From the NCBI RefSeq assembly GCF_035594765.1, contig NW_026943822.1, positions 21,475,769 to 21,539,768 of the forward strand: a DNA stretch of 64,000 nucleotides, in the 5' to 3' direction. The translations under genes and the position numbers were made by a program. The notes beneath the pieces are model-generated. The model worked only from the letters and a program-made list of their open reading frames with translations. It was not told the origin of the DNA and made no database searches. Of this stretch, positions 23,101-60,100 are shown piece after piece (the stretch's first letter is position 1; each line of letters begins with the position of its first letter). The stretch comes from Anolis carolinensis (Eukaryota).

Positions 23101-23688
23101 CTGTGACCAATTCCAAGGCCAGCCAAGGCGGATCAACCCCTGGGAGAGATGGGGCCGAGGGAGGAGGTCGGCCAGAGCTTCAGCTGCCAAGCAAGGTATG
23201 TTCAACATTGGTTTAATGCTCCACAAAACCAATTTTGACAAGTCCATTCTCAAGGGCGAACCCCATATTTCCAAGCCTTGGAATCCTACTGTTGACTCAG
23301 CAGCCTGAACCTCAGATTGAGGAACGAGGGATTCAGGTTCCCAGTCTCCCCGAAAGGCCTGTAGTGTTGGAGGATGAGGAACGGAGAGTGCAGTTTCAGG
23401 TTCCCACAGGAAAGGCTGGAGTAGATGAAACCAGCCAGGTGCATACCGACATGGGAATGGAAGAAGGGAGGACAGAAGATTCTTAGCTGAATGATGAGTC
23501 TCAGAGAAATAACGAGCCAACTGACCTTAATGAGTTAGATTCCTTAGATAGGGCTTAGCGTTTGGAATTCAGAGTTCGGCGAAGTGTGAGAATCGCAAAT
23601 AGAAGGGAGGTGAGAGGGCAGAGAAATGCCTTCATGTTTTGCAAAGAGTCCCGAGTCCCTGTGGGGAGATGGTGGCGGGGTATAAATA

Positions 23689-23727
<39 letters not shown>

Positions 23728-25116
23728 AAGGGGTGCGTTCGGGGGAAAGCCTTTGTCAAAGCAACTCTTTCACGGAGAAGCAAGTTCTAGTTTTCCTGCT
23801 GTATCTTGGAGTCTATTGCCTTCTATCTATCCATGTTCCTGGGGATTAGCCATGCTGTCTTTGAATCTTGTTTTATGCCTTGTGAGTTCCTGACATATTT
23901 CTGTGGATTGTATTTTTATTTATAACTGACTTTTGGTGCTTTACTTTTGCTTTCTAAAGAACTTTTTATTCTTTAACTTCAATAAACTTTAAAGGCTTAA
24001 ACATGGTGTGCAATTTGTGCATTAGAGCAAGGTGAATTCCAACCTATCACTGTTCCTTCTCTTGTTCCTACCATAACACCTTCCCAGATTGGGAACTTGA
24101 GTCTCAGGATGACCCCATATCTAGGGTCTCATGTTGGGTTTCCTGTGGTTTGCATGGACAGAAAGACTGGTCCAAACAAAGAGTGCTCCTCAACCATTGT
24201 TTCTCAGTTTAATTCTGAGAAGTCCTTGGGCAGGAATGCTGGGAGCTTAAGTCCCAAATATGTAGAAGACCCACATTTGAGAAATCTTCAACACATTGAG
24301 GTGTTATCTACCTTCACTCAAATCCAGGTATGCTGAAGGAGGTGGAGACGGACGTGATGTTGGGCCCGATCCTGATCTTGGATGCCTACCTGACCTCCAG
24401 GACCTTTGCTGGACGTCAAAGCGAAGCAACGGGATCCTCGGCAGAATATGGTACAGTTGGCACACAAACATCAATGATGGTTGGAGGCACCTATGCCATT
24501 ACGGTGGGATAAACGTTCCGTGATTTAGTCCGAACTGGATGTTGAAATCCTAACTCCACCAATGGGTTCAGCACCTAGGACAGTGATGGCCAACCTATGA
24601 CACGCGTGTCAGCACTGACACGCCTAGCCATTTTTGCTGACACGCTGCCGCATGCAGATTGATTGGATGACTAATGCCTTTTGTGGCCAAATTCAGTGTG
24701 ATTTGGTCCAGTGGTTTTGTTGTTTACTCCATGGGAATTATGCACTCTATATATATATACAGTAGAGTCTCACTAATCCAAGCTAAACGGGCCGGCAGAA
24801 GCTTGGATGAGCGAATATCTTGGATTATAAGGACTGATCAAGGAAAAGCCTATTAAACATCCAATTAGGTTATGATTTTACAAATTAAGCACCAAAACTT
24901 CATGTTATACAACAAATTTGACAGAAAAAGTAGTTCAATACGCAGTAATGTTATGTTGTAATTACTGTATTTACGAATTTAGTACCAAAATATCACGATA
25001 TATTGGAAACATTGACTACAAAAATGGCTTGGATTATCCAGAGGCTTGGATAAGCGAGGCTTGGATTAGTGAGACTCTACTGTGTGTATATATATATATA
25101 TACACACACACACACA

Positions 25117-27634: not shown

Positions 27635-33982
<6,348 letters not shown>

Positions 33983-38420: not shown

Positions 38421-41400
38421 ATGCCGGAGGGTCCAGAGCTGTTCCTAACCAGCAGGTACATCAACGCGGTGTGCAGAGGACTGGTTTTTGCTGGGAAAGT
38501 GGAGAAGTCGGAGGTGAGCAAGAACCCGGCCGTGCCCTTTGAGAGCGATGGGTATGTGGTCTCCTCCACGTCTCGGGGGAAAGAGCTGAAGCTGACCCTC
38601 GCCCCGGTCAAGCGGGAAAAGGGCCACTCTCCCTCCGGAGACGGGATCCGTCCAAACCGAGACCCGAAAGCCATGGACGTCGTCTTCCGTTTCGGGATGT
38701 CCGGCGGCTTCAAACTGGTCCCGGTCGCCGAGATGCCCAAGCACGCCCACTTGCGCTTTTACTCGAAAGAGAAACCGGTCCGAGTCCTTTGCTACGTCGA
38801 CGTCCGGCGCTTCGGCCGATGGGAGGTGGACGGCGACTGGCAGGCGGAGCGAGGCCCCTGCGTGATGCTGGAGTATCAGAAGTTCAGGTGATAGATAAAG
38901 ATAGAAACAAGGAGATCTTATTTAATTACCTAATCACCGCAGCTAGAATGAACTTGGCGAAACTTTGGAAGGATAAGGAGATGCCGGGGATAAAAGGATG
39001 GATAAATAAAGTCTGGGAGATTATGAATATGGACAAATTAACATATTTACTACGAAATAATCATGGCAAACCAATGAAACAGACAAATTGGGAAACGGTC
39101 AAAAACTATCTGAGGGAAGAAAAATATAATGTGATTATTTAGAATAGAGAGTAAGACAATAAATATAAAATACCGAGTTAGGTGTTTTAAGATGAAACAA
39201 TAAAGTAGAGACACTAGAAAAAATGGTCCGAAGGACTACAACATGGTTTAGAATTAACTAAGAATTTCACTAGATACTGTGCAAAGATGGAAGTCTATGC
39301 TATTTTTAGTCGGTGCGGTGGTTGGATTTTCCTGTGTTTGTTTTGAGTTTATCTATTATTACTCTGTTATTATTCCAATTCCCCATTTCCCCCTCACTGT
39401 CTCGTGTTTATGTATTTTCGTTTTTTCTGCGTACTTTTTTTTTCTTTTTTTCCTGTCTTTCTTTTATTACTTTGATTGTTAAAAACTCCAATAAAAATTA
39501 AGTTGAAAAAAAAAAGAAGTTCAGGTGAGTTGCAATGCTAGGCTAGATCAATAGGAATCCAGGCCGTCCCTGAGTTACAAACATCTGACTTACGAATGAC
39601 TCCTAGTTAAGAACAGGGCTGGACTAGATGGCCTTCAGGGGTCCCTTCCAAACCTATGATACTATACCTATCTTGCATATATCTGTATCTATATCTATGT
39701 ATATACACACACATAAATAAGAATAATAATAATCGCAGTGATGTTGACCGGCTATATCTGCCTAGAAGATCAGGGGGCAGAGGACTCTTACAAGTAAAAC
39801 AAGCAGTCAAAGAAGAAGAACATGCTCTGGCAGAATATGTCAAGCAAAGTGAAGAACCTGCTTTGATTGAAGTCAAAAATCAGAAACTCCTCAAAACACA
39901 GCAGACAAAAAAAACTAGTACAAGAAAACCGCACTACAAACTAGAGCTGACAGCTGGCACAACAAAACATTGCATGGAAAGTTTCTTGACAAAATTGAAG
40001 GAAAAGCTGACAAGGAGAAGACCTGGCTCTGGCTCACGAATGGGACCCTGAAGAAGGAGACAGAAGGCCTGATCCTTGCAGCCCAGGAGCAAGACATCAG
40101 GACAAAGGCAATTAAGGCCAAGATCGAAAAATCATCTGATGACCCAAAATGCAGACTTTGCAAGGAAACCGACAAAACCATTGATCATATCCTCAGCTGC
40201 TGTAAGAAAATCGCACAGACAGACTACAAACAGAGGCACAACTATGTGGCCCAAATGATTCATTGGAACGTATGCCTCAAGTACCACCTCCCAGCAGCAA
40301 AGAACTGGTGGGATCACAAACCTGCAAAAGTATTGGAAAATGAGCACGCAAAGATACGGTGGGACTTCCGAATCCAGACTGACAAAGTTCTGGAACACAA
40401 CACACCAGACATCTCAGTTGTGGAAAAGAACAAGGTTTGGATCATTGATGTTGCCATCCCAGGTGACAGTCGCATTGACGAAAAACAACAGGAAAAACTC
40501 AGCCGCTATCAGGACCTCAAGATTGAACTTCAAAGACTCTGGCAGAAACCAGTGCAGGTGGTCCCGGTGGTGATGGGCACACTGGGTGCTGTGCCAAAAG
40601 ATCTCAGCCGGCATTTGGAAACAATAGACATTGACAAAATCACGATCTGCCAACTGCAAAAGGCCACCCTACTGGGATCTGCGCGCATCATCAGAAAATA
40701 CATCACACAGTCCTAGACACTTGGGAAGTGTTCGACTTGTGGTTTTGTGAAATGAAATCCAGCATATCTATCTTGTTTGCTGTGACATAATAAAATAATA
40801 ATAATAAATAATTTTGGTAGCCGTCTTGATCCGTTTCAGGGAGAATGTGCTGAGGAACCTCTCCGACAAAGCCTTTGAGAAGCCCATCTGCGAAGCTCTG
40901 CTGAATCAGAAATATTTCAACGGCATCGGCAACTATCTCCGGGCAGAAATCCTCCACCGGTGAGTCAATATTTGACCACGTTTCGAAAGTCAGAATCGCC
41001 TGGGTTGCTTTTGGAAACGTTGCTGTCCGATACCAAAGGCTCTTCATTTAGTGAAATAGTCACAGAAAAAACCAAACAAGGTTCCCAATGTTTCAGAAAA
41101 CCTTCTGCCAGGTTTTTAAGCAACTTATATATTTTTATGTTGTTTTATGCTGTTTTATACAATATTGTTATTGTATATACTCAAGTATAAGCCAACCCGA
41201 ATATAAGCCGAGGCACCTAATTTTACCACAAAAAAACTGAGAAAACATTGACTCCAATATAAGCCGAGGGTGGTAAATTTCAGAAATAAAAACAGATACC
41301 AATAAAATTACATTAATTGAGGCATCCGTAGGTTAAATGTTTTTGAATATTTACATCAAGCTCAAATTTAAGATAAGACTGTCCAACTCTGATCAAATCA

Positions 41401-44547: not shown

Positions 44548-44583
<36 letters not shown>

Positions 44584-47500
44584 GACACAACGACATTGTA
44601 TGACACAGCAAACAAGATAGATATGCTGGATTTCGTTTCACAAAATCACAAGTCAAACACTTCCCAAGTGTCTAGGACTGTGTGATGTATTTTCGGATGA
44701 TGCGTGCAGATCCCAGTAAGGTGGCCTTTTGCAGTTGGCAGATCGTAATTTTGTCAATGTCTATTGTTTCCAAATGCCGGCTGAGATCTTTTGGCACGGC
44801 ACCCAGTGTGCCCATCACCATTGGGACCACCTGCACTGGTTTCTGCCAGAGTCTTTGAAGTTCAATCTTAAGGTCCTGATAGCGGCTGAGTTTTTCCTGT
44901 TGTTTTTCTTCAATGCGACTGTCACCTGGGATGGCAACATCAATGATCCAAATCTTGTTCTTTTCCACAACTGTGATGTCTGGTGTGTTGTGTTCCAGAA
45001 CTTTGTCAGTCTGGATTCGGAAGTCCCACAGTATCTTTGCGTGTTCATTTTCCACAACCTTTGCAGGTTTGTGATCCCACCAGTTCTTAACTGCAGGGAG
45101 GTGATACTTGAGGCATAGGTTCCAATGAATCATTTGGGCCACATAGTTGTGCCTCTGTTTGTAGTCTGTCTGTGCAATTTTCTTACAGCAGCTGAGGATA
45201 TGATCAATGGTTTCATCGGTTTCCTTGCACAGTCTTGCACCCTTGCACAATAATAATAATAATTATTATTATTATTACAGTGTAGATACATCCTTGTGTT
45301 TTAACATTCGCTCTTGTTTTCTCCCCAGACAGCGGCAAAGGTTACTATTCGGATCACCCGGAGGACCACACGGCCTTTGAAAAGTGGCTTCAGTGCTATT
45401 TCGTCCCAGGCATGAAATCCCTCAGCGATTCAAATGGCAGGACCATCTGGTTTGAGGTCAGAACAGAATGAGGCAGATAAATATTTTGGGGAAATCATGA
45501 AGCTGCAGTGTGTGGGGTCCCAATTTATTATTTAAAGTCATTAAGGCTGCATCTACACTGGGGAATGAATGCAGTTTGATACCACTTTAACTGCCATGGC
45601 TTAATACTGTAAGAACTTCCACATTTGCATAAGCTGCGAGTATGCAACTATAAGTGAGCCCATCAATCGTGTGTTGTTTACAATCTAGCGTCGGCAAGTA
45701 GCATCTCAAGCGGCCACTGTGCAAGTCCTACTTTTCTGAGTAAATAGGCTATTTACTATAAATTGTAATTTTTTAATGATTTATTGAAAAACCGCGAAAA
45801 AACAAGTCCGCGAAAAGCGAACTGCAAAGTAGCGAGGGAACACTGTATATCAATTCTGGAGTAGGCAGATTCTCAGGATTTGTACCACTATTGGTGTGGT
45901 AGGTTCCCAGCAATAAAATATTAATTGTATATGGCTTTTTTTTGCCTTGATCATATTCCCAAAATAAGAGGGTGGAGAAATGTGATAATAGATAAATGAT
46001 GTGTAGGTATGTTTGTATGTATTAAATGTGCAAGCTACTCACAACACAAAATATAAGATAATATTAATAAAAATATATATGTAAAAAAATATTATTGGTG
46101 TGATAGGTTCCCAGCATTGAAATACTAATTGTATATGGCTTTCTTTTGCCCTGATCATATTCCCAAAATAAGAGGGTGGAGAAATGTGATAATAGATAAA
46201 TGATGTGTAGGTATGTTTGTATGTACTAAATGTGCAAGCTACTCACAACACGAAATATAAGATAATATTAATAAAAATATATATTTTAAAAATTATTATT
46301 GGTGTGATAGGTTCCCAGCATTGAAATATTAATTGTATATGGCTTTCTTTTGCCCTGATCATATTCCCAAAATAAGAGGGTGGAGAAATGTGATAATAGA
46401 TAAATGATGTGTAGGTATGTTTGTATGTATTAAATGTGCAAGCTACTCACAACACAAAATATAATAATATTAATTTAAAAATATTTTTAAAAATATCATT
46501 GGTGTGATAGGTTCCCAGCATTGAAATATTAATTGTATATGGCTTTCTTTTGCCCTGATCATATTCCCAAATTTGCTTTCCTTCCCATTATAGGGGGATC
46601 CTGGACCGATGGCCCCAAAAGGTGAGCATCAGATTTCCATCCTTCTCAACACTTTCCTAAATTATTTTCTAAATGTAGATCAGGGTAGGTAATGTGTAAC
46701 TATGGGGCCTGAGCTGCTGAACTTGCTGACCGAAAGGTCAGCAGTTCGAATCCAGGGAGCAGGGTGAGCTCCTGCTGTTAGCCCCAACTCCTGCCAACCT
46801 AGCAATTCGAAAACATGCAAATGTGAGTAGATCAATAGGGAAGGTAAAAGCGCTCCATGCAGTCATGCCAGTGGCCACATGACCTTGGAGGTGTCTACGG
46901 ACAACGCCGGCTCTTCGGCTTAGAAATGGAGATGAGCACCAACCCCCAGAGTCAGACACGACTGGGCTTCGTGTCAGGGGAAACCTTTACTTTTACCTTA
47001 ATGTGTAACTTAGGGATCCCAAAGTTTGTTTCAATAGACCTCAACTCCCTGGCAAAATAGAACAATACATTATCTCTCATCTAGAAGTGGCAATTCACCT
47101 TGTAAAAGGATGCATGCATTGCTCGACATTAAAAAAAAATATTCATTTTTCCATATCCAAAATGAACTTTCAGCTATTTCTGCTCCTGTTGTGTCTCTTT
47201 CTTGGGTATTTTTGCAGCCTTCAAACAATCTCAGTGCCTGTTTGGAAGTCTATCTATTACAAGTCTGGAACAAAACAGCATTATTTTGAGCTGATTCTAA
47301 CAAAATGATATGTTTTTTCATATCAGGAGATAAACCGCGCAAGAAACGGTTGCAGGTCAAAGCGATTCCTGAAGTGTCAAAGGAGAAGCCAGGCAGGAAA
47401 CGGCTGCAAGTTAAAAACGATCCATTAAGTCCCAAGGTAATTAGATTGGTGGAGTGCGGCTTGATGGCTCACCCATAGCCTACATTTTCGCTTGATATGG

Positions 47501-51183: not shown

Positions 51184-54100
51184 AACTTTATTTATATACC
51201 GCCCTATCTCCCGGATGGGACTCAGGGCGGTTTCCAATCATAAAAACAACACAAACATTACATAGCAACATAATAACACAGTATTAAGCAAAATAAAATA
51301 ATACAATTATAGCAATAAATAACACTTACATGACCTGATCAAGGGGACGGGAACCATAAACCCAATATATTAAAATGTATCATAATATAAATACTGCAAA
51401 TAAATAAATGAATAAATAAACTACCTACATACCCAATAGTTAAGGATCATGGGCTCTGTAGTCCACTAGAACTACAAGCATGTGATGAACCATGGGCCTT
51501 GTAGTCCTGCTCAGGACATTGTAATCCCTGATGAAGATGAAAACTTGGGTTTTTTACCTTCCCAGTCTGAACTGGATTCCTCTCAGCCAGATCCTTCCCA
51601 GGCAGATCTGGAAACCTTGCACCTGCAAGAAAGTTGTGCCCCAGAAGTATGTCAAACAACCCCAGAGCCTACTTCTCCCGTGTTCTTGCGCCGGGAGTTT
51701 TGTAAACAACAGAGAAGTTTGGATTCAGCTTCGCGCAGGAGTGCGAGGATAGCAGCTAAGAATGTTGCCAATTAACATTGGTTCTCGTGAGAATCTTTAA
51801 GGAGTTTAACATCTGGTCTCAGAGTTTAGCTTTCGTTTCTGATTCCCAGAGAACCGCTTTGGTGAGAAAGTTGGACTCTATATAGGTGTTTTGCCCGCGT
51901 AGCAACTTCGCGGAGTCAATTCGTCAGCCTACGGAGCGAGTTGTGTCTGGACAGCGCGCTCCGATTCAAGCCTCGCTTCAGCTCAAGCCTTGCCTTGCTA
52001 TCCAGCCTTCGCCTTGCTTCCCAGCCTTTGTTTACCGACGGACTTTGCCTTGTTTCCCAGGACTAATCCTTGCCTTGTTTCACGGATTTTACCAAGTTAT
52101 TCCACGGACCTTGTTCTTGTTCTTAGTTACCTTGTTCCACGTTCAAGCCTTGTTTCAAGTATCAAGTTATTTCCTAGCCACGCTCAAGTTTTATGGACTA
52201 AGGACCTTGTCATCTCCCCTCACTTTGCTTGGCAAAGTGAGTGTTTCGGTTATTGGATTACAACTTTGGACCTTAATATTTCTTATTGGACATTGCTTTT
52301 TTGGACTAATTCTGACCTTTCCTGAAGGGTCTAATTCTGGACTATTTTCTATACTTGTTTTTATTAACTTTATATATTCCTTCAATAAAGATATTAGTTA
52401 GATTCTGGCCTCTGTGTATGGTTATTGGTGCCTCTGCCGCCTGGGTCGTGACAGTTTGACTCCGCCACCCATAAGCACCAACTAACCGAGGCCAGGATGT
52501 CTACCGGAGCCGCGCCGGCTGGACAGCCGCTCAGCTACACCATCAGCAAGGACGAAGTGGACCGCATCCGTGACAGACTCAACGCGCAGGATGGAGAAAT
52601 AAAAGGGTTGAGGGAGCGCGGAGTTCGCCTCCCGGCCATGGCGTTGCCTACCAAGTTTTCTGGAGAAGCTGCTAAGGTTCATGTTTTCCGCCGCCAATGT
52701 CAAGCTTATCTAGAGGCCCGTGATGCCGAGTTTCCCCAAGAAGACATCAAGGTGGCGTGGGTCTACAGTCTTCTAGACGGACCAGCGGCTAGCTGGGCGA
52801 CGGCCCTGTTTGATCAAGCCTCCCCCCACCTAAGTTCAGCACAACGCTTCTTGGATCACCTTAAGGAGACCTGGGGAATCGAGGACAATTTGGAGGCAGC
52901 CGGTCACAAACTCCGGCGCCTCCTTCAAGGAGACAGACCCATGTCTCAGTACATAGCCGAGTTCCGCGTGCTGGCCCACAACACCGGCTGGAACGATGTA
53001 GCCCTCAGAGGACAATTTCGGGAGGGTCTCAACATTGAAATGCTGGAAGAAATCTCCAAGGTGGATCCTCCCCAGACCCTCGAGGCACTCATTGATCAAT
53101 GTTTACGGGCTGAAGTCATGATTGCCAACAGGAAACAATGGGTTCGAGGCCAGGGCGGTAGAGCCGGGGCAAAACCCCCCGCTCCCGCCAGTGTTCAGCC
53201 ACGTCCGGTGTGGAGACCCCCACCGCCAACCCCATACCCCAGAGGAGGCGAGGAGGTGCCGATGCAGTTGGGCAATGTGCGTCCCAGACTAGATGCCGCC
53301 GAGAAGGCCCGTCGTCAACGCTTGAACCTCTGCTGGTACTGCGGGAACGGGGGCCACTTCGCCAGAGAGTGCCCAGCCAAAGGGAAGCCTGCCGCCCGTC
53401 TTGCGGCGGCGTCCTCCACGGAGTCGAAGGCGTCTGAGCCGACTGGCACACAGCCGGCGGGGGAAGCCAACGACCGGGTGTAGAGAGGCTCGCCAACCCG
53501 GTCAAAAAATCCATCCAAGAGCCGCCAACCGGGGTCCTGTTCCTTCTCGTGGTCACATTATGGTCAGCAAAAAGGGGACCCGTCATGATCCACGCCATGA
53601 TAGACTCTGGAGCTACCAACAATTTCATCGATAGAGAGTATGCCGACTCTCTGGGATTACAATATCATGATTTCAAGAATGCCCGTGTGGTGCAAGCCAT
53701 AGACGGCCGCCCCCTCAAGACGGGCCCCGTAAGCCAGTGGTCGGAACCCACCAGGATGTGGATAAGGGAACATATGGAAGAGATTTCCTTCTTTGTTACC
53801 GAGGTTCCCCATTTCCCTGTGATTTTGGGAATTCCATGGCTGACACTCCACGACCCTAACATCTCCTGGTCCAACAGAGAACTGCAGTTTGCTTCACCGT
53901 ACTGCCAAAACCATTGCCTCGTAGCCAAGGTATGCCATGCCACAGACTCCGAGCCCATCATCACCTTGCCAAAGAAGTACTCCGAGTATTGGGATGTATT
54001 CAATGAGAAAGAAGCCGAAAAATTACCCCCACATAGACCTTATGACTGTGCCATTGACTTGGTGGAGGGGGCCCCGATCCCGCGAGGGCATCTCTACTCC

Positions 54101-57100
54101 CTGACTGAACCAGAGCAAGAAGCTCTCAGGGAATTCTTAGAGACAAACCTTCGCAAGGGGTTCATCAGACCCTCTCAATCCCCAGCCGCCTCCCCAGTGA
54201 TGTTTGTGAAGAAGAAGTCAGGGGAATTACGCTTGGTGGTGGACTACAGAGCATTGAACAATATCACCAAGCGGAACAGCTATCCCCTGCCCTTAATCTC
54301 GGATCTACTGGACCGACTTCGAGGAGCCAAGGTCTACACCAAGCTGGATCTTCGGGGGGCTTATAATCTAGTTCGCATCAGAGAAGGGGACGAGTGGAAG
54401 ACCGCCTTCCAGACTAAATTCGGATTATTCGAGTCCCGAGTTATGAATTTCGGTTTATGCGGAGCTCCCGCAACGTTCCAGCATTTTGTCAACGATATTT
54501 TTCAGGACTATCTAGACAGATTCTTGATAATCTACCTGGACGATTTTTTGGTGTTTTCCAGATCACAATCAGAACATGAGAACCACGTCAAAATGGTGTT
54601 GCAACGACTGCGGGATCATGGACTTTATGCCAAGCTAGAAAAATGCGCTTTTGATCTACAAGAGGTAGATTTCCTTGGCTACCGCATCTCGCCTCTAGGG
54701 CTTTCCATGGATCCAGCCAAAGTTTCAGCAGTATTGGAATGGCGGGCGCCAACTAACAAGAAAGAGGTGCAGCGTTTCTTGGGGTTCGCGAACTACTACC
54801 GCAAGTTCATTCCAGATTTTGCCCGCTGGTCCGACCCCATCACTAGCTGCATCCGTGGAAAGCAGCCTTTCCGCTGGACTGATCAAGCAGAGAAAGGGTT
54901 CCAGCAACTGAAGAAACTATTCACCTCCCAGCCAATTCTACAGCACCCAAATCCTGGAACCCCTTTTGTGGTGCAAGCGGACGCCTCTGATGTGGCAATT
55001 GGGGCTGTACTCTTACAACCGGTGGGCGATCACCTCCACCCCTGTGCCTTTTATTCTCGTCAACTAACCACACCAGAGAGGAATTACACCATTTGGGAAA
55101 AAGAACTACTGGCCATAAAGGCAGCCTTTGAAACTTGGAGACATTGGCTAGAAGGGGCCAAATTCCCCATTGAAGTCCACACTGATCATCGTAATCTAGA
55201 ACATCTAAGAACTGCCCGCAAACTAAATCAGAGGCAGCAACGTTGGGCTTTATTCTTTGAACGTTTCAACTTCCAGATCCATTATGTGACCCCAGCTCAA
55301 ACCAAGCAAGCAGACGCCCTGTCACGTAAACCGGAATACGCTGCAGGACGCAAGGAGACCTTTGAATCCCAACTGCTACAACCTGAGAACTTTGCCACGC
55401 TCACAGTGGGGAACACCAAATCCAGTCCCATTGGTTCAACTTCCCCTACTCCAGGACCCATCTGTGCTCAAGAAATCAGGGCTAGTCAGCAAGCAGATGC
55501 CTGGGCGCAGGACCAACTTCGCCAAGGTCTGCATTTTCCCTTTTCGCTTAAAGATGGGCTGCTCTGCTATAGAAATCATGTTTATATCCCACCCGGACCG
55601 GGCAGGGAAAAAGCGCTTCGTCTGTGTCATGACTGCAAACCAGCAGGACACTTCGGACTATTTAAAACCATGCATTTGATCCTAAGAGATTTTTGGTGGC
55701 CCAAGATCCGCAAGGATGTGGAAAAATATGTCAACACCTGCCCAGTATGCCAGCGCTCCAAGATACGAAGGGAGAAGCCCTCAGGGCTTTTGCACCCCCT
55801 TCCTACCCCATCTCGCCCATGGGAAATAATTTCCGCGGATTTCATCACTGACCTACCACCTTCCTGTGGATTCACCACGATCTTAGTGGTGGTGGACCTA
55901 TTCACCAAGTTAGCCCATTTCATTCCCTGCGAAGGCCTCCCCACGGCCAAAGAAACTGCGGATCTATTTCTTCAGCATGTTTTCAGACTACATGGATTGC
56001 CCAAGAGTTTAGTCACAGACCGTGGATCTCAATTCACCTCTCGTTTTTGGAAGGCACTACAAAAACTACTGGGCATAGACTCTCGCTTATCTTCAGCTCA
56101 TCATCCCCAAACAGATGGGCAAACGGAGCGCACCAATGCCACTTTGGAGCAGTATCTTCGCTGTTATGTAAACTACCAACAGGACAATTGGGCTTCTCTG
56201 TTACCACTGTCTGAGTTTGCCTACAATAATGGAGTTCAAGCTTCTACAAAAGAAACGCCGTTCTTTGCAAACTACGGTTTCCATCCACGTTTCTTTCCCC
56301 CTGTCATTGAAACTTCAGAAGTTCCCGCAGCAGAGGATTGGCTGCAGGAACTCACAGCGGTGCAACAACTTTTGCTCCAGCAACTGGACCAAGCCAAGGA
56401 GGACTATAAACGCCACGCTGACAAACACCGCCAGCCGGGCCCCGAAATCAAGGTAGGAGATCGGGTTTTTCTGTCCACTCGCTTTCTGCCCTCCCACCGC
56501 CCATGCCGGAAGTTAGATGCCCGCTTCATTGGCCCCTATCCAGTGGTGGCGCAATTAAACCCCGTGACTTTCAAACTCCAACTTCCGCGTTCAATGCGCA
56601 TTCACCCAGTGTTTCACCGTTCCCTGCTCCTTCCGGCGGATGGTGTGCGTCCTGATACAGACCAACCGGCCCCCCCTCCTGTTTTGATGAATGGGGAGGA
56701 GGAGTTCGAGGTTGAGGACATTTTGGATTCTCGCTTTCATCGCCGCCGCCTACAATATCTCATTGACTGGGTGGGTTTTGGGCCTGAGGAACGCTCTTGG
56801 GAAGACGCCTCCACAGTCCATGCTCCTGATCTAACCCGTCGCTTCCATCTGACCTATCCCACCAAACCGCGACCTCGCGCCTCGGGGAGAGGACCCCAGT
56901 TTGGGAGGGGCCCTGAGGAGGGGGATAGTGTGATGAACCATGGGCCTTGTAGTCCTGCTCAGGACATTGTAATCCCTGATGAAGATGAAAACTTGGGTTT
57001 TTTACCTTCCCAGTCTGAACTGGATTCCTCTCAGCCAGATCCTTCCCAGGCAGATCTGGAAACCTTGCACCTGCAAGAAAGTTGTGCCCCAGAAGTATGT

Positions 57101-60100
57101 CAAACAACCCCAGAGCCTACTTCTCCCGTGTTCTTGCGCCGGGAGTTTTGTAAACAACAGAGAAGTTTGGATTCAGCTTCGCGCAGGAGTGCGAGGATAG
57201 CAGCTAAGAATGTTGCCAATTAACATTGGTTCTCGTGAGAATCTTTAAGGAGTTTAACATCTGGTCTCAGAGTTTAGCTTTCGTTTCTGATTCCCAGAGA
57301 ACCGCTTTGGTGAGAAAGTTGGACTCTATATAGGTGTTTTGCCCGCGTAGCAACTTCGCGGAGTCAATTCGTCAGCCTACGGAGCGAGTTGTGTCTGGAC
57401 AGCGCGCTCCGATTCAAGCCTCGCTTCAGCTCAAGCCTTGCCTTGCTATCCAGCCTTCGCCTTGCTTCCCAGCCTTTGTTTACCGACGGACTTTGCCTTG
57501 TTTCCCAGGACTAATCCTTGCCTTGTTTCACGGATTTTACCAAGTTATTCCACGGACCTTGTTCTTGTTCTTAGTTACCTTGTTCCACGTTCAAGCCTTG
57601 TTTCAAGTATCAAGTTATTTCCTAGCCACGCTCAAGTTTTATGGACTAAGGACCTTGTCATCTCCCCTCACTTTGCTTGGCAAAGTGAGTGTTTCGGTTA
57701 TTGGATTACAACTTTGGACCTTAATATTTCTTATTGGACATTGCTTTTTTGGACTAATTCTGACCTTTCCTGAAGGGTCTAATTCTGGACTATTTTCTAT
57801 ACTTGTTTTTATTAACTTTATATATTCCTTCAATAAAGATATTAGTTAGATTCTGGCCTCTGTGTATGGTTATTGGTGCCTCTGCCGCCTGGGTCGTGAC
57901 AAAGCACCCTCTCGCTGCTCTACCTGAAACTGCAAATAATGGCAAACTCTCCACCAAAAAGCTTACTTTCTAAGCCACGTAGTCTCGTCAACACACCCAT
58001 GTCCATAATGTTGGAGAGCAGAGATAAACAATGATGCATCCAATTCTTCTTGTAACTGGATGTTATCAGCAGAGACCTCTCAAGCACCCCTAGAAGTCTT
58101 TGCAGGTGCCTGTTGCAATATGTGTAGCTACAAGAATATAGCTGTTGGACAGGCAATGCTTCTGCTTCCCCTATCCATCCATCTACACTCCAGATTGTCT
58201 TATGCCATGCAATTCCTCATCCTAGGATGCCTGACCTGTTTTACTGTCTCCAAAATAACGGCTGGGGACTCTACTGAGAAGGCGCTCCAAGCCGGGCACT
58301 GGGCAGAGACACTCGGCATGATGTGAAGAGGGAAGTTCAGATTATATGCTTGATGGATCACCTGGGCCTCTTGGAAGGAACCTGTCCGGAGAAAAAACTG
58401 AGTCAAAACTGGGCCAAAACTAACAAAATGAAGTTCAACAGGGACAAATGCAAGATACTTCACTTCGGCAGAAAAAATGGAAATCAAAGAGACAGAATGG
58501 GGGACGATGCCTGGCTTGACAGCAGTGTGTGCGAAAAAGACCTTGGAGTCCTCGTGGACAACAAGTTAAACATGAGCCAACAATGTGATGCGGCTGCTAA
58601 AAAAGCCAATGGGATTCTGTCCTGCATCAATAGGGGAATAGCGTCTAGATCCAGGGAAGTCATGCTCCCCCTTATTCTATTCTGCCTTGGTCAGACCACA
58701 CCTGGAATCACACTGTGTCCAATTCTGGGCACCACAGTTGAAGGGAAATGTTGACAAGCTGGAAAGCGTCCAGAGGAGGGCGACTAAAATGATCAAGGGT
58801 CTGGAGAACAATCCCTATGAGGAGCGGCTTAAAGAGCTGGGCATGTTTAGCCTGCAGAAGAGAAGGCTGAGAGGAGATATGATAGCCATGGACAAATACG
58901 TGAAGGGAAGTCATAGGGAGGAGGGAGCAAGCTTGTTTTCTGCTGCCCTGCAGACTAGGACACAAGGGAACAATGGCTTCAAACTACAGGAAAGGAGATT
59001 CCACCTGAACATCAGGAAGAACTTCCTCACTGTGAGAAAGGCTGTTCGACAGTGGAACTCTCTCCCCGGGGCTGTGGTGGAGGCTCCTTCCTTGGAGGCT
59101 TTTAAGCAGAGGCTGGATGGCCATCTGTCGGGGGTGCTTTGAATGCGATTTCCTGCTTCTTAGCAGGGGGTTGGACTAGATGGCCCATGTGGTCTCTTCC
59201 AACTCTACTATTCTATGATTCTATGATTCTATGATTCTATGAGTGGTGGGTGAGGAAAATACTTTGCAGTATTAGCAACCTGCGGATGCAAAGAGGCATC
59301 GACACTTGTATAAAGCAATGAGTGAGAGGAACTCTAGAGAACATGCCTATCCTTACGTGTCTCCAATTTATTTCTTTGCTCTATGTCCTCAAGTCTCTTG
59401 GCTTCCTTCCTGCCTGGAAAAGTAACTTCTGCCTTCTTCTGAAAGCAGAATTAGGCCTTTCTCTCCCTTCGTCTGGGAAGGGAACATGAACGGATAGCTT
59501 ATGTCTTTTTTTTTTTTTTGGCTCATGATTTTTTAATAGTTATTTTGTCGTTTTATCCCACTCCCACCCTCCCCTCCTTGTACATGCAACTGATACAACA
59601 AACTGCAGAAGTTACATTTGAAATATCAATCTCAATCTTAATTTTTCCACTCCTCATCTTAGTACATTCTCTAAATAGTTCTTAACTGGTTCCCACATCC
59701 CCTTGATTATTGCAATGTTTTCAATTTTATCTATATTATTCCATTTGCAATTTGTGTTTTCTACATTTAACATATCAACTATATACTTATACCAATTCGT
59801 CAGAGTCCATTTTGTTTTCTCTTTCCAACCCCTCATTAAAACAATTTGTGCACATGCTATTAATTTGTCTACCATTTTTTCTTTTTGTATATTCTTCACT
59901 TCTGTTATCCTTGCATGTAGTACATTTCTGTTAACTATTACTATTTGTAGATTTAGCATTCTATTAATTTCTCCTTCAATCATTCTCCAGTATTCTTGCA
60001 CTTGATCGCACTCCATATCATGTGATTAAACACCCCTCTTTGTTCACAACCGTGCCAACACCTATCCTTCATCCCTGGTAAAAAACGTGAAAGTTGTCCA

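Follow-up and report, generated by a model that had tools for sequence, protein, structure and literature searches.

Does the integrase of a vertebrate retrotransposon carry, in a part encoded by the long terminal repeat (LTR), a peptide that holds on to the host nucleosome? The question is raised by a complete and young Ty3/gypsy chromovirus at positions 51481-57901 of a stretch of 64,000 nucleotides from Anolis carolinensis (assembly GCF_035594765.1, contig NW_026943822.1), referred to here as the window. The two LTRs of the element are 973 bp each and 100% identical, and a 5-bp target site duplication flanks the whole. A sequence-only reading of the window had proposed that the pol frame runs through the polypurine tract (PPT) into the U3 part of the 3' LTR, adding to integrase an acidic linker and a motif that resembles the nucleosome-binding core of the HMGN proteins. 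We find that the U3-coded peptide is under constraint, and on balance we favour the view that its tip would act as a general nucleosome tether, an HMGN-like anchor on the H2A-H2B acidic patch, beside the chromodomain as reader of histone marks.

A reading frame in U3

The pol frame (53438-57223; this frame, the other parts of the element and the solo LTR described below lie on the + strand) is a single open frame of 1261 residues from stop to stop. Beyond the chromodomain it passes through the PPT (56915-56928), which is translated, and continues for 97 sense codons in the 3' LTR (56930-57220) to a stop codon at 57221-57223, very close to the approximately 98 codons first estimated. The sequence-only reading had counted the chromodomain as part of the LTR-coded segment; it is in fact encoded upstream of the PPT, at 56705-56848 (Pfam Chromo, residues 1090-1137, E 8.8e-09). 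Taking the spacing of the aromatic cage to be that of HP1, all cage positions are filled (F1090, W1111, F1114). This is a group I cage by the definition given in PMC3605345.

The LTR-coded tail consists of a linker of 84 residues (56930-57181) and a short tip. The linker was correctly described as acidic and rich in proline and serine (15 D/E against 4 K/R, 10 P, 11 S), and its sequence and length vary between subfamilies. Within it lies a second kept block, DE[DE]EN[LM]GF (56978-57001), which resembles an acidic FxGF motif with the first phenylalanine missing. The HMGN-like motif RRSARIAAK occupies 57182-57208, inside the ten-residue stretch located at 57179-57208 as claimed, and four residues remain before the stop. 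When the LTR was shuffled 20,000 times, 1.0% of the shuffles gave an open frame of 97 codons, and the other five LTR frames contain 2-7 stops each; RRSAR[IL] appeared at a frequency of 2.5e-05 in 400,000 shuffles of the tail.

It had also been suggested that U3 does double duty as promoter and coding sequence. The frame does cover the first 295 of the approximately 429 nt of U3 (which we place at about 56929-57357 of the 3' LTR, 56929-57901), but the core promoter lies outside it: between the stop of the frame and the TATA box further on (57327-57332) there are about 104 nt. The U3 copy in the 3' LTR is upstream of the poly(A) signal (AATAAA, 57832-57837) and so would be present on the genomic RNA.

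Comparison with databases and structure prediction added little. The U3 peptide matched no Pfam family at E values up to 10, the HMGN profile included, and the last 37 residues of the tail matched no sequence in the PDB at E 10. The best ESM Atlas score of the U3 peptide was 0.79, which is uninformative. An AlphaFold2 model of the chromodomain and tail, made with no alignment, had a mean predicted local distance difference test score (pLDDT) of 47.9 and left even the chromodomain unfolded; it was not used.

Constraint on the tail within Anolis

The sample comprised 43 Anolis proteins; the two main clusters have 460 members, of which 30 were listed. The chromodomain anchor is present in 27 of these proteins and absent in 16. 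Most of the family reads on into the LTR, contrary to the outcome that the sequence-only reading had named as telling against it: the whole tail is kept by 22 of the 27. The remaining five comprise two proteins truncated at or after the chromodomain, two from a sister family, in which the PPT is where the protein ends or diverges, and one that diverges inside U3. The pattern used to select the 22 tails presupposes R1, R5 and IAA, but the tip was also present in 17 of 18 proteins that had been located through their chromodomain only.

The tails fall into five in-frame length classes, all of which rejoin the same end. Mean pairwise identity is 0.96 in the integrase core and SH3 domain (17 rows), drops to 0.66 in the linker (minimum 0.43) and rises again to 0.94 in the motif, which is the best-kept 8-mer of U3 among 18 aligned tails, with R1, S3, R5 and the I, A and A that follow invariant. 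The first 8-mer of the LTR scores 0.92 and the DE[DE]EN[LM]GF block, in third place, 0.91. Among the 22 tails the motif begins with RRSAR in 14 and with RRSLR in five, and one tail each has R2 changed to S, R2 changed to Q and S3 changed to N; RRSxR is present in 19 and all three arginines in 20.

The contigs of four runs supplied variants as an independent line of evidence, one listing giving 40 of its 121 variants. Of 18 variants within the U3 frame, 11 are synonymous, the expected fraction being 0.29 (p 0.005), and one variant set alone gives 9 of 16 (p 0.02). Of the 17 variant sites in the U3 frame, 12 are at the third codon position; when the non-coding LTR is read in that frame, the figure is 7 of 24 (Fisher p 0.010), each site being classed singly although two pairs share a codon. 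The sole listed variant in the motif codons, a common one at 57199, is synonymous. All eight listed indels fall in the non-coding LTR (p 0.056), and the RNA fold over the motif is not unusual (z -0.93). Given the excess of synonymous and third-position changes, the in-frame tail lengths and the unremarkable RNA fold, we conclude that constraint acts on the U3-coded peptide and not merely on the DNA.

A putative arginine anchor

Six of the eight residues of the HMGN core, RRSARLSA of HMGN1-5, are shared by the lizard motif. The match to RRSARIAT of yeast Dot5 is closer still, with seven of eight residues and the first seven identical. RRSARLSA is the part by which HMGN proteins bind the acidic patch; the cryo-electron microscopy structure of HMGN2 resolves only RRSAR, the last arginine being the anchor, and tardigrade Dsup relies on arginines one and five (PMC12487698). 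Dot5 binds the H2A-H2B acidic patch and needs R6, R7 and R10 to do so (PMC13347269). These proteins form a class of HMGN-like motifs (HMGN1-5, Dsup with RRSSRLTS, and Dot5) that has three essential arginines and a low-complexity context in common with the lizard motif. The lizard motif differs in that it is a candidate binder, sits on a retrotransposon integrase and has no basic DNA-binding flank.

The pol frame that runs through the PPT into U3 adds to integrase, after the chromodomain, an acidic linker and a conserved RRSARIAA tip, and by analogy this tip would probably be an arginine anchor of the HMGN type. The tail would stay on the mature integrase, and R1 and R5 of its tip would insert into the acidic patch as in Dsup and HMGN2. 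A flexible linker would allow the tip to sit on one nucleosome face while the chromodomain engages the H3 tail and the catalytic core the target DNA. As reported for Dsup and Dot5 (PMC13347269, PMC12480509), HMGN-like motifs show no genomic bias in their binding to nucleosomes, so the tip would more likely confer retention on chromatin, through avidity and perhaps through mitosis, than choice of site, which would rest on the chromodomain. There is precedent for both roles among viral proteins: foamy virus Gag tethers via the acidic patch and thereby shapes integration sites (PMC9040877), whereas p12 of murine leukaemia virus (MLV) provides avidity rather than an address (PMC5053271). AlphaFold 3 is reported to place HMGN2 on the nucleosome with low confidence and in the wrong orientation (PMC12487698).

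Chromovirus relatives outside Anolis

We compared the tail with 275 non-Anolis relatives in which a chromodomain was located. RRSAR[IL] occurs in two of them, against 0.022 expected and none in 2000 shuffles that keep the charge of each tail, and the looser RRSxR[IL] in three, against 0.25 expected. The sequence-only reading had cautioned that RRSxR motifs are common in retroelement tails; among these relatives they are not. One carrier is a family in Podarcis muralis, 63% identical in the integrase, with the same layout and a different acidic linker. It has RRSARLKA 22 residues from the end in all five cluster members that reach there, while a sixth member stops before the PPT. The expectation that frame and motif would be conserved across families is thus borne out in the diverged Anolis subfamilies and in this Podarcis family. 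Another protein, P0287 from ENA, ends in RRSARIAAR without a linker, 8 residues into the inferred LTR.

The U3 tails of the Anolis and Podarcis families are 30% identical (E 4e-04 without composition correction), a likeness that does not suffice to establish the linkers as homologous. A single clade of all carriers was rejected (p-AU 0.010, approximately unbiased test) on a 147-column tree that includes the nested Anolis sister family; an earlier test, with p-AU 1.8e-06, had left that sister family out and was set aside. The RRSAR[IL] motif may have had at least two origins, or it may be an old motif that has often been lost.

In many of the relatives the protein ends before the LTR or only a little way into it, and chimeric gene models are frequent among them. 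By a loose peptide pattern that includes false positives, 70 of the 275 were scored as entering the LTR, and 15 of these 70 have an exact SPx[YF] end 17-35 residues into it. These are fish elements (P0008, P0012, P0017, P0024, P0025, P0027, P0030, P0230, P0257, P0258, P0272, P0277, P0297, P0309 and P0332). The Anolis tail contains S-P-x-F about 20 residues before the motif, perhaps an older end of the tail. An AT-hook-like RGRP follows the chromodomain directly in 44 of the 275 relatives. Two proteins from other lacertid chromovirus families that form a supported pair in the tree, P0377 from Podarcis lilfordi and P0459 from Podarcis muralis, carry acidic FxGF after the chromodomain, one copy in the former and two in the latter; this is possibly an independent route to the integration cofactor used by HIV.

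Taken together, these ends raise the possibility, which we put forward tentatively, that the start of U3 in vertebrate chromoviruses is an evolving cassette of short host-mimicking motifs on integrase. The arginine anchor would have been gained more than once, in lizard families and in an element that groups with frog elements, and sister lineages would have acquired other tips, namely the basic clusters of snakes, SPx[YF] and RGRP in fish, and acidic FxGF in other Podarcis families. If so, the arginine anchor of the lizard tail would be the first on any integrase, and the families would form a natural series on how tether swaps shift the landing of retroelements.

Weighing the alternatives

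Several observations weigh against a nucleosome anchor. The motif is rare, being present in only two of 275 relatives, and no new non-Anolis carrier was found among the 93 scorable of 102 further proteins. Snake and amphisbaenian families of the same layout keep the read-through and the acidic linker and end in other basic tips without RRSAR (P0219, P0365, P0370, P0372 and P0386 from Vipera and Crotalus; P0082 and P0214 from Rhineura), and the feature conserved across the clade may be a basic end only. Entry into the LTR was read in the relatives from peptides and not from DNA. A clade uniting the Anolis and Podarcis families was not rejected (p-AU 0.29), so these two may share one origin. Even within Anolis the motif is not fixed, R2 being changed in two and S3 in one of the 22 tails and position 4 being L in seven, and annotated gene models are biased towards open frames. 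Binding of this peptide to the acidic patch is a prediction, for which a plain basic or nuclear-import tip is a rival. The flank of the motif is acidic, with four residues after the motif and no neighbouring basic DNA-binding region, and it is on just such a region that Dsup and Dot5 lean for strong binding (PMC13347269, PMC12480509). Integrase itself could supply the DNA-binding region. The interpretation as a chromatin tether is supported in part: it gains from the conservation of frame and motif, but it loses from the precedents for read-through, from the different tips of most relatives and from the weakness of a solo LTR cited in its favour (see below).

The most serious competitor, though one we consider rather unlikely, is that the tip is a basic end for nuclear import or non-specific binding of nucleic acid and that its likeness to HMGN is incidental. 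The snake families do carry clusters of K/R in this position, and the tail of Rhineura ends in a basic tip containing KRGRP, but the Anolis tip lacks a K-[KR]-x-[KR] cluster, which we take to be the classical consensus of a nuclear localisation signal (NLS). The residues kept include S, I, A and A, and not charge alone, and RRSAR[IL] recurs far above chance in shuffles that preserve charge. Support for a nuclear-import role comes from other integrases: possible NLSs are described in those of plant chromoviruses (PMC3605345), and Ty1 integrase has a C-terminal NLS. A functional tail might also bind a non-histone host protein: the acidic NLGF block could contact a domain of the TND/LEDGF type, for example, or RRS a kinase or phosphatase. 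Alternatively, the tail might be cleaved off and work alone; no sign of cleavage was found, though no search was aimed at it. The rank of DE[DE]EN[LM]GF among the best-kept 8-mers and the full acidic FxGF after the chromodomain in two other Podarcis families speak for such a partner, as an acidic linker with FxGF defines the binders of LEDGF and HRP2 (PMC9987994). However, in the Anolis tails the first F of FxGF is N, so that the TND-interacting motif is incomplete, and no NLGF block at all is present in the Podarcis family that carries RRSARL. We judge this explanation improbable; it leaves the RRSAR tip unaccounted for and is in any case compatible with an anchor on the nucleosome.

The extension could, finally, be a by-product of a lost stop codon, its conserved stretches reflecting constraint on U3 as DNA or RNA through the attachment (att) site or enhancer sites. 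The att site does constrain the first codons of the LTR (PMC3601003), which would explain the conservation of the first 8-mer, and the bias of annotated proteins towards open frames works in the same direction; the absence of listed indels from the frame is weak evidence when taken alone. What makes a by-product very unlikely, the least credible of the three, is that the third-position excess is found inside the frame and not outside it, that the motif tolerates a common synonymous variant (57199) as well as an A/L exchange, that the five tail lengths are all in frame, and that the RNA fold over the motif is not unusual.

Comparison with known systems

The element is a sushi-type chromovirus. 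With Sushi-ichi and MAGGY it shares the domain order, the chromodomain at the end of integrase, the lack of env and a self-complementary primer binding site (PBS); what it adds to them, and what our searches did not find described, is the 97 constrained LTR-coded residues with their HMGN-like end. Read-through into the LTR is not new. In the plant CRM group A elements pol also runs on into the 3' LTR, which there codes for a putative targeting element, the CR motif (PMC3059260), and the pol frame likewise enters the 3' LTR in the Beetle and Bingo families of Beta (PMC3605345); read-through also appears to be widespread in the clade, the fish and snake relatives described above included. The CR motif of CRM group A replaces the chromodomain, whereas the Anolis element has a true chromodomain upstream of the PPT and a second, recognisable motif in the LTR. 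The Anolis element does not belong to CRM group A, and its tail is not an HMGN protein.

The closest functional parallels are Gag of prototype foamy virus (PFV), p12 of MLV and LANA of Kaposi's sarcoma-associated herpesvirus, in which a short peptide holds host chromatin as the Anolis tail would; PFV Gag and LANA do so by an arginine anchor on the acidic patch (PMC9040877, PMC5053271). All three are Gag or DNA-virus proteins, whereas the candidate anchor of Anolis is located on integrase, is encoded by an LTR and copies a host HMGN word. In our literature search, which did not extend to the entries of Repbase, Dfam and GyDB (where read-through may be noted), we came across no paper that assigns a motif of the HMGN-like or acidic-patch kind to the integrase of a retrotransposon.

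Apart from the HMGNs themselves, very few proteins (Dsup and Dot5) are known to have anchors of this type. A constrained motif of nine residues, almost the same as one that has been validated, turns how vertebrate chromoviruses reach and choose chromatin into a testable question. If the predicted binding is real, the acidic patch would be a target that retrotransposon integrases share with foamy virus Gag and LANA, and U3, usually treated as non-coding, would have to count as coding sequence in this clade of chromoviruses.

Element layout and other features of the window

Between the LTRs the element encodes gag and then protease, reverse transcriptase, RNase H and integrase in the order that fits a sushi-type chromovirus. 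The 5' LTR (51481-52453) has TG...CA ends, and the target site duplication lies at 51476-51480 and 57902-57906. Of the att motifs tabulated for sushi elements, TGTYANR and CNTNACA (PMC3601003), the LTR's 3' end matches, while its 5' end carries G where the motif has Y. The closest proteins to the integrase are from Anolis carolinensis itself, with 96-97% identity.

The PBS (52456-52465) has 10 nt of complementarity to the element's own LTR at 51910-51919 and is presumably of the self-priming type of Tf1 and sushi elements. On this assumption transcription would start near 51910, about 30 nt past the TATA box at 51879-51884. Gag (52497-53483) contains a capsid and a CCHC zinc knuckle (matches to Retrotrans_gag, Ty3_capsid and zf-CCHC). 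Its end is overlapped in the -1 frame by pol, in which integrase is followed by an SH3 domain, the chromodomain and the tail. At the overlap (53460-53510) a run of G precedes a stem that could aid a -1 shift; the heptamer differs from GGGAAAC, the one used by PEG10 and sushi elements.

A second copy of the U3 frame is present in the 5' LTR (51482-51775), upstream of the inferred transcription start. Every LTR copy has an in-frame ATG at LTR position 5 (51485 and 56933) that opens a tail-only reading frame of 96 codons. This frame likewise lies upstream of the inferred start in the LTR and could be read from host transcripts; the Anolis gene models P0019 and P0035 contain pieces of it.

A probable solo LTR of another family lies outside the element at 23290-24078, with TG...CA ends and flanks matching at four of five positions. 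As the sequence-only reading had noticed, it contains a similar motif, RRSVRIA at 23577, which is 287 nt into the LTR and so near the 253 nt of RRSARIAAK in the 3' LTR. However, two in-frame stops lie upstream of it, and blastn found no match over 16 nt between the solo LTR and the 3' LTR. We therefore rejected it as firm support, and regard the resemblance as suggestive. The solo LTR also holds a short (TTA)n-tailed insertion at about 23650-23726.

Elsewhere in the window, four copies of one repeat, 93-98% alike, are found at 545-1427, 32188-33119, 39907-40789 and 44549-45235, and their frames resemble a non-LTR retrotransposon's 3' end. The window is also filled with many pieces resembling short interspersed elements and CR1, together with tandem arrays.

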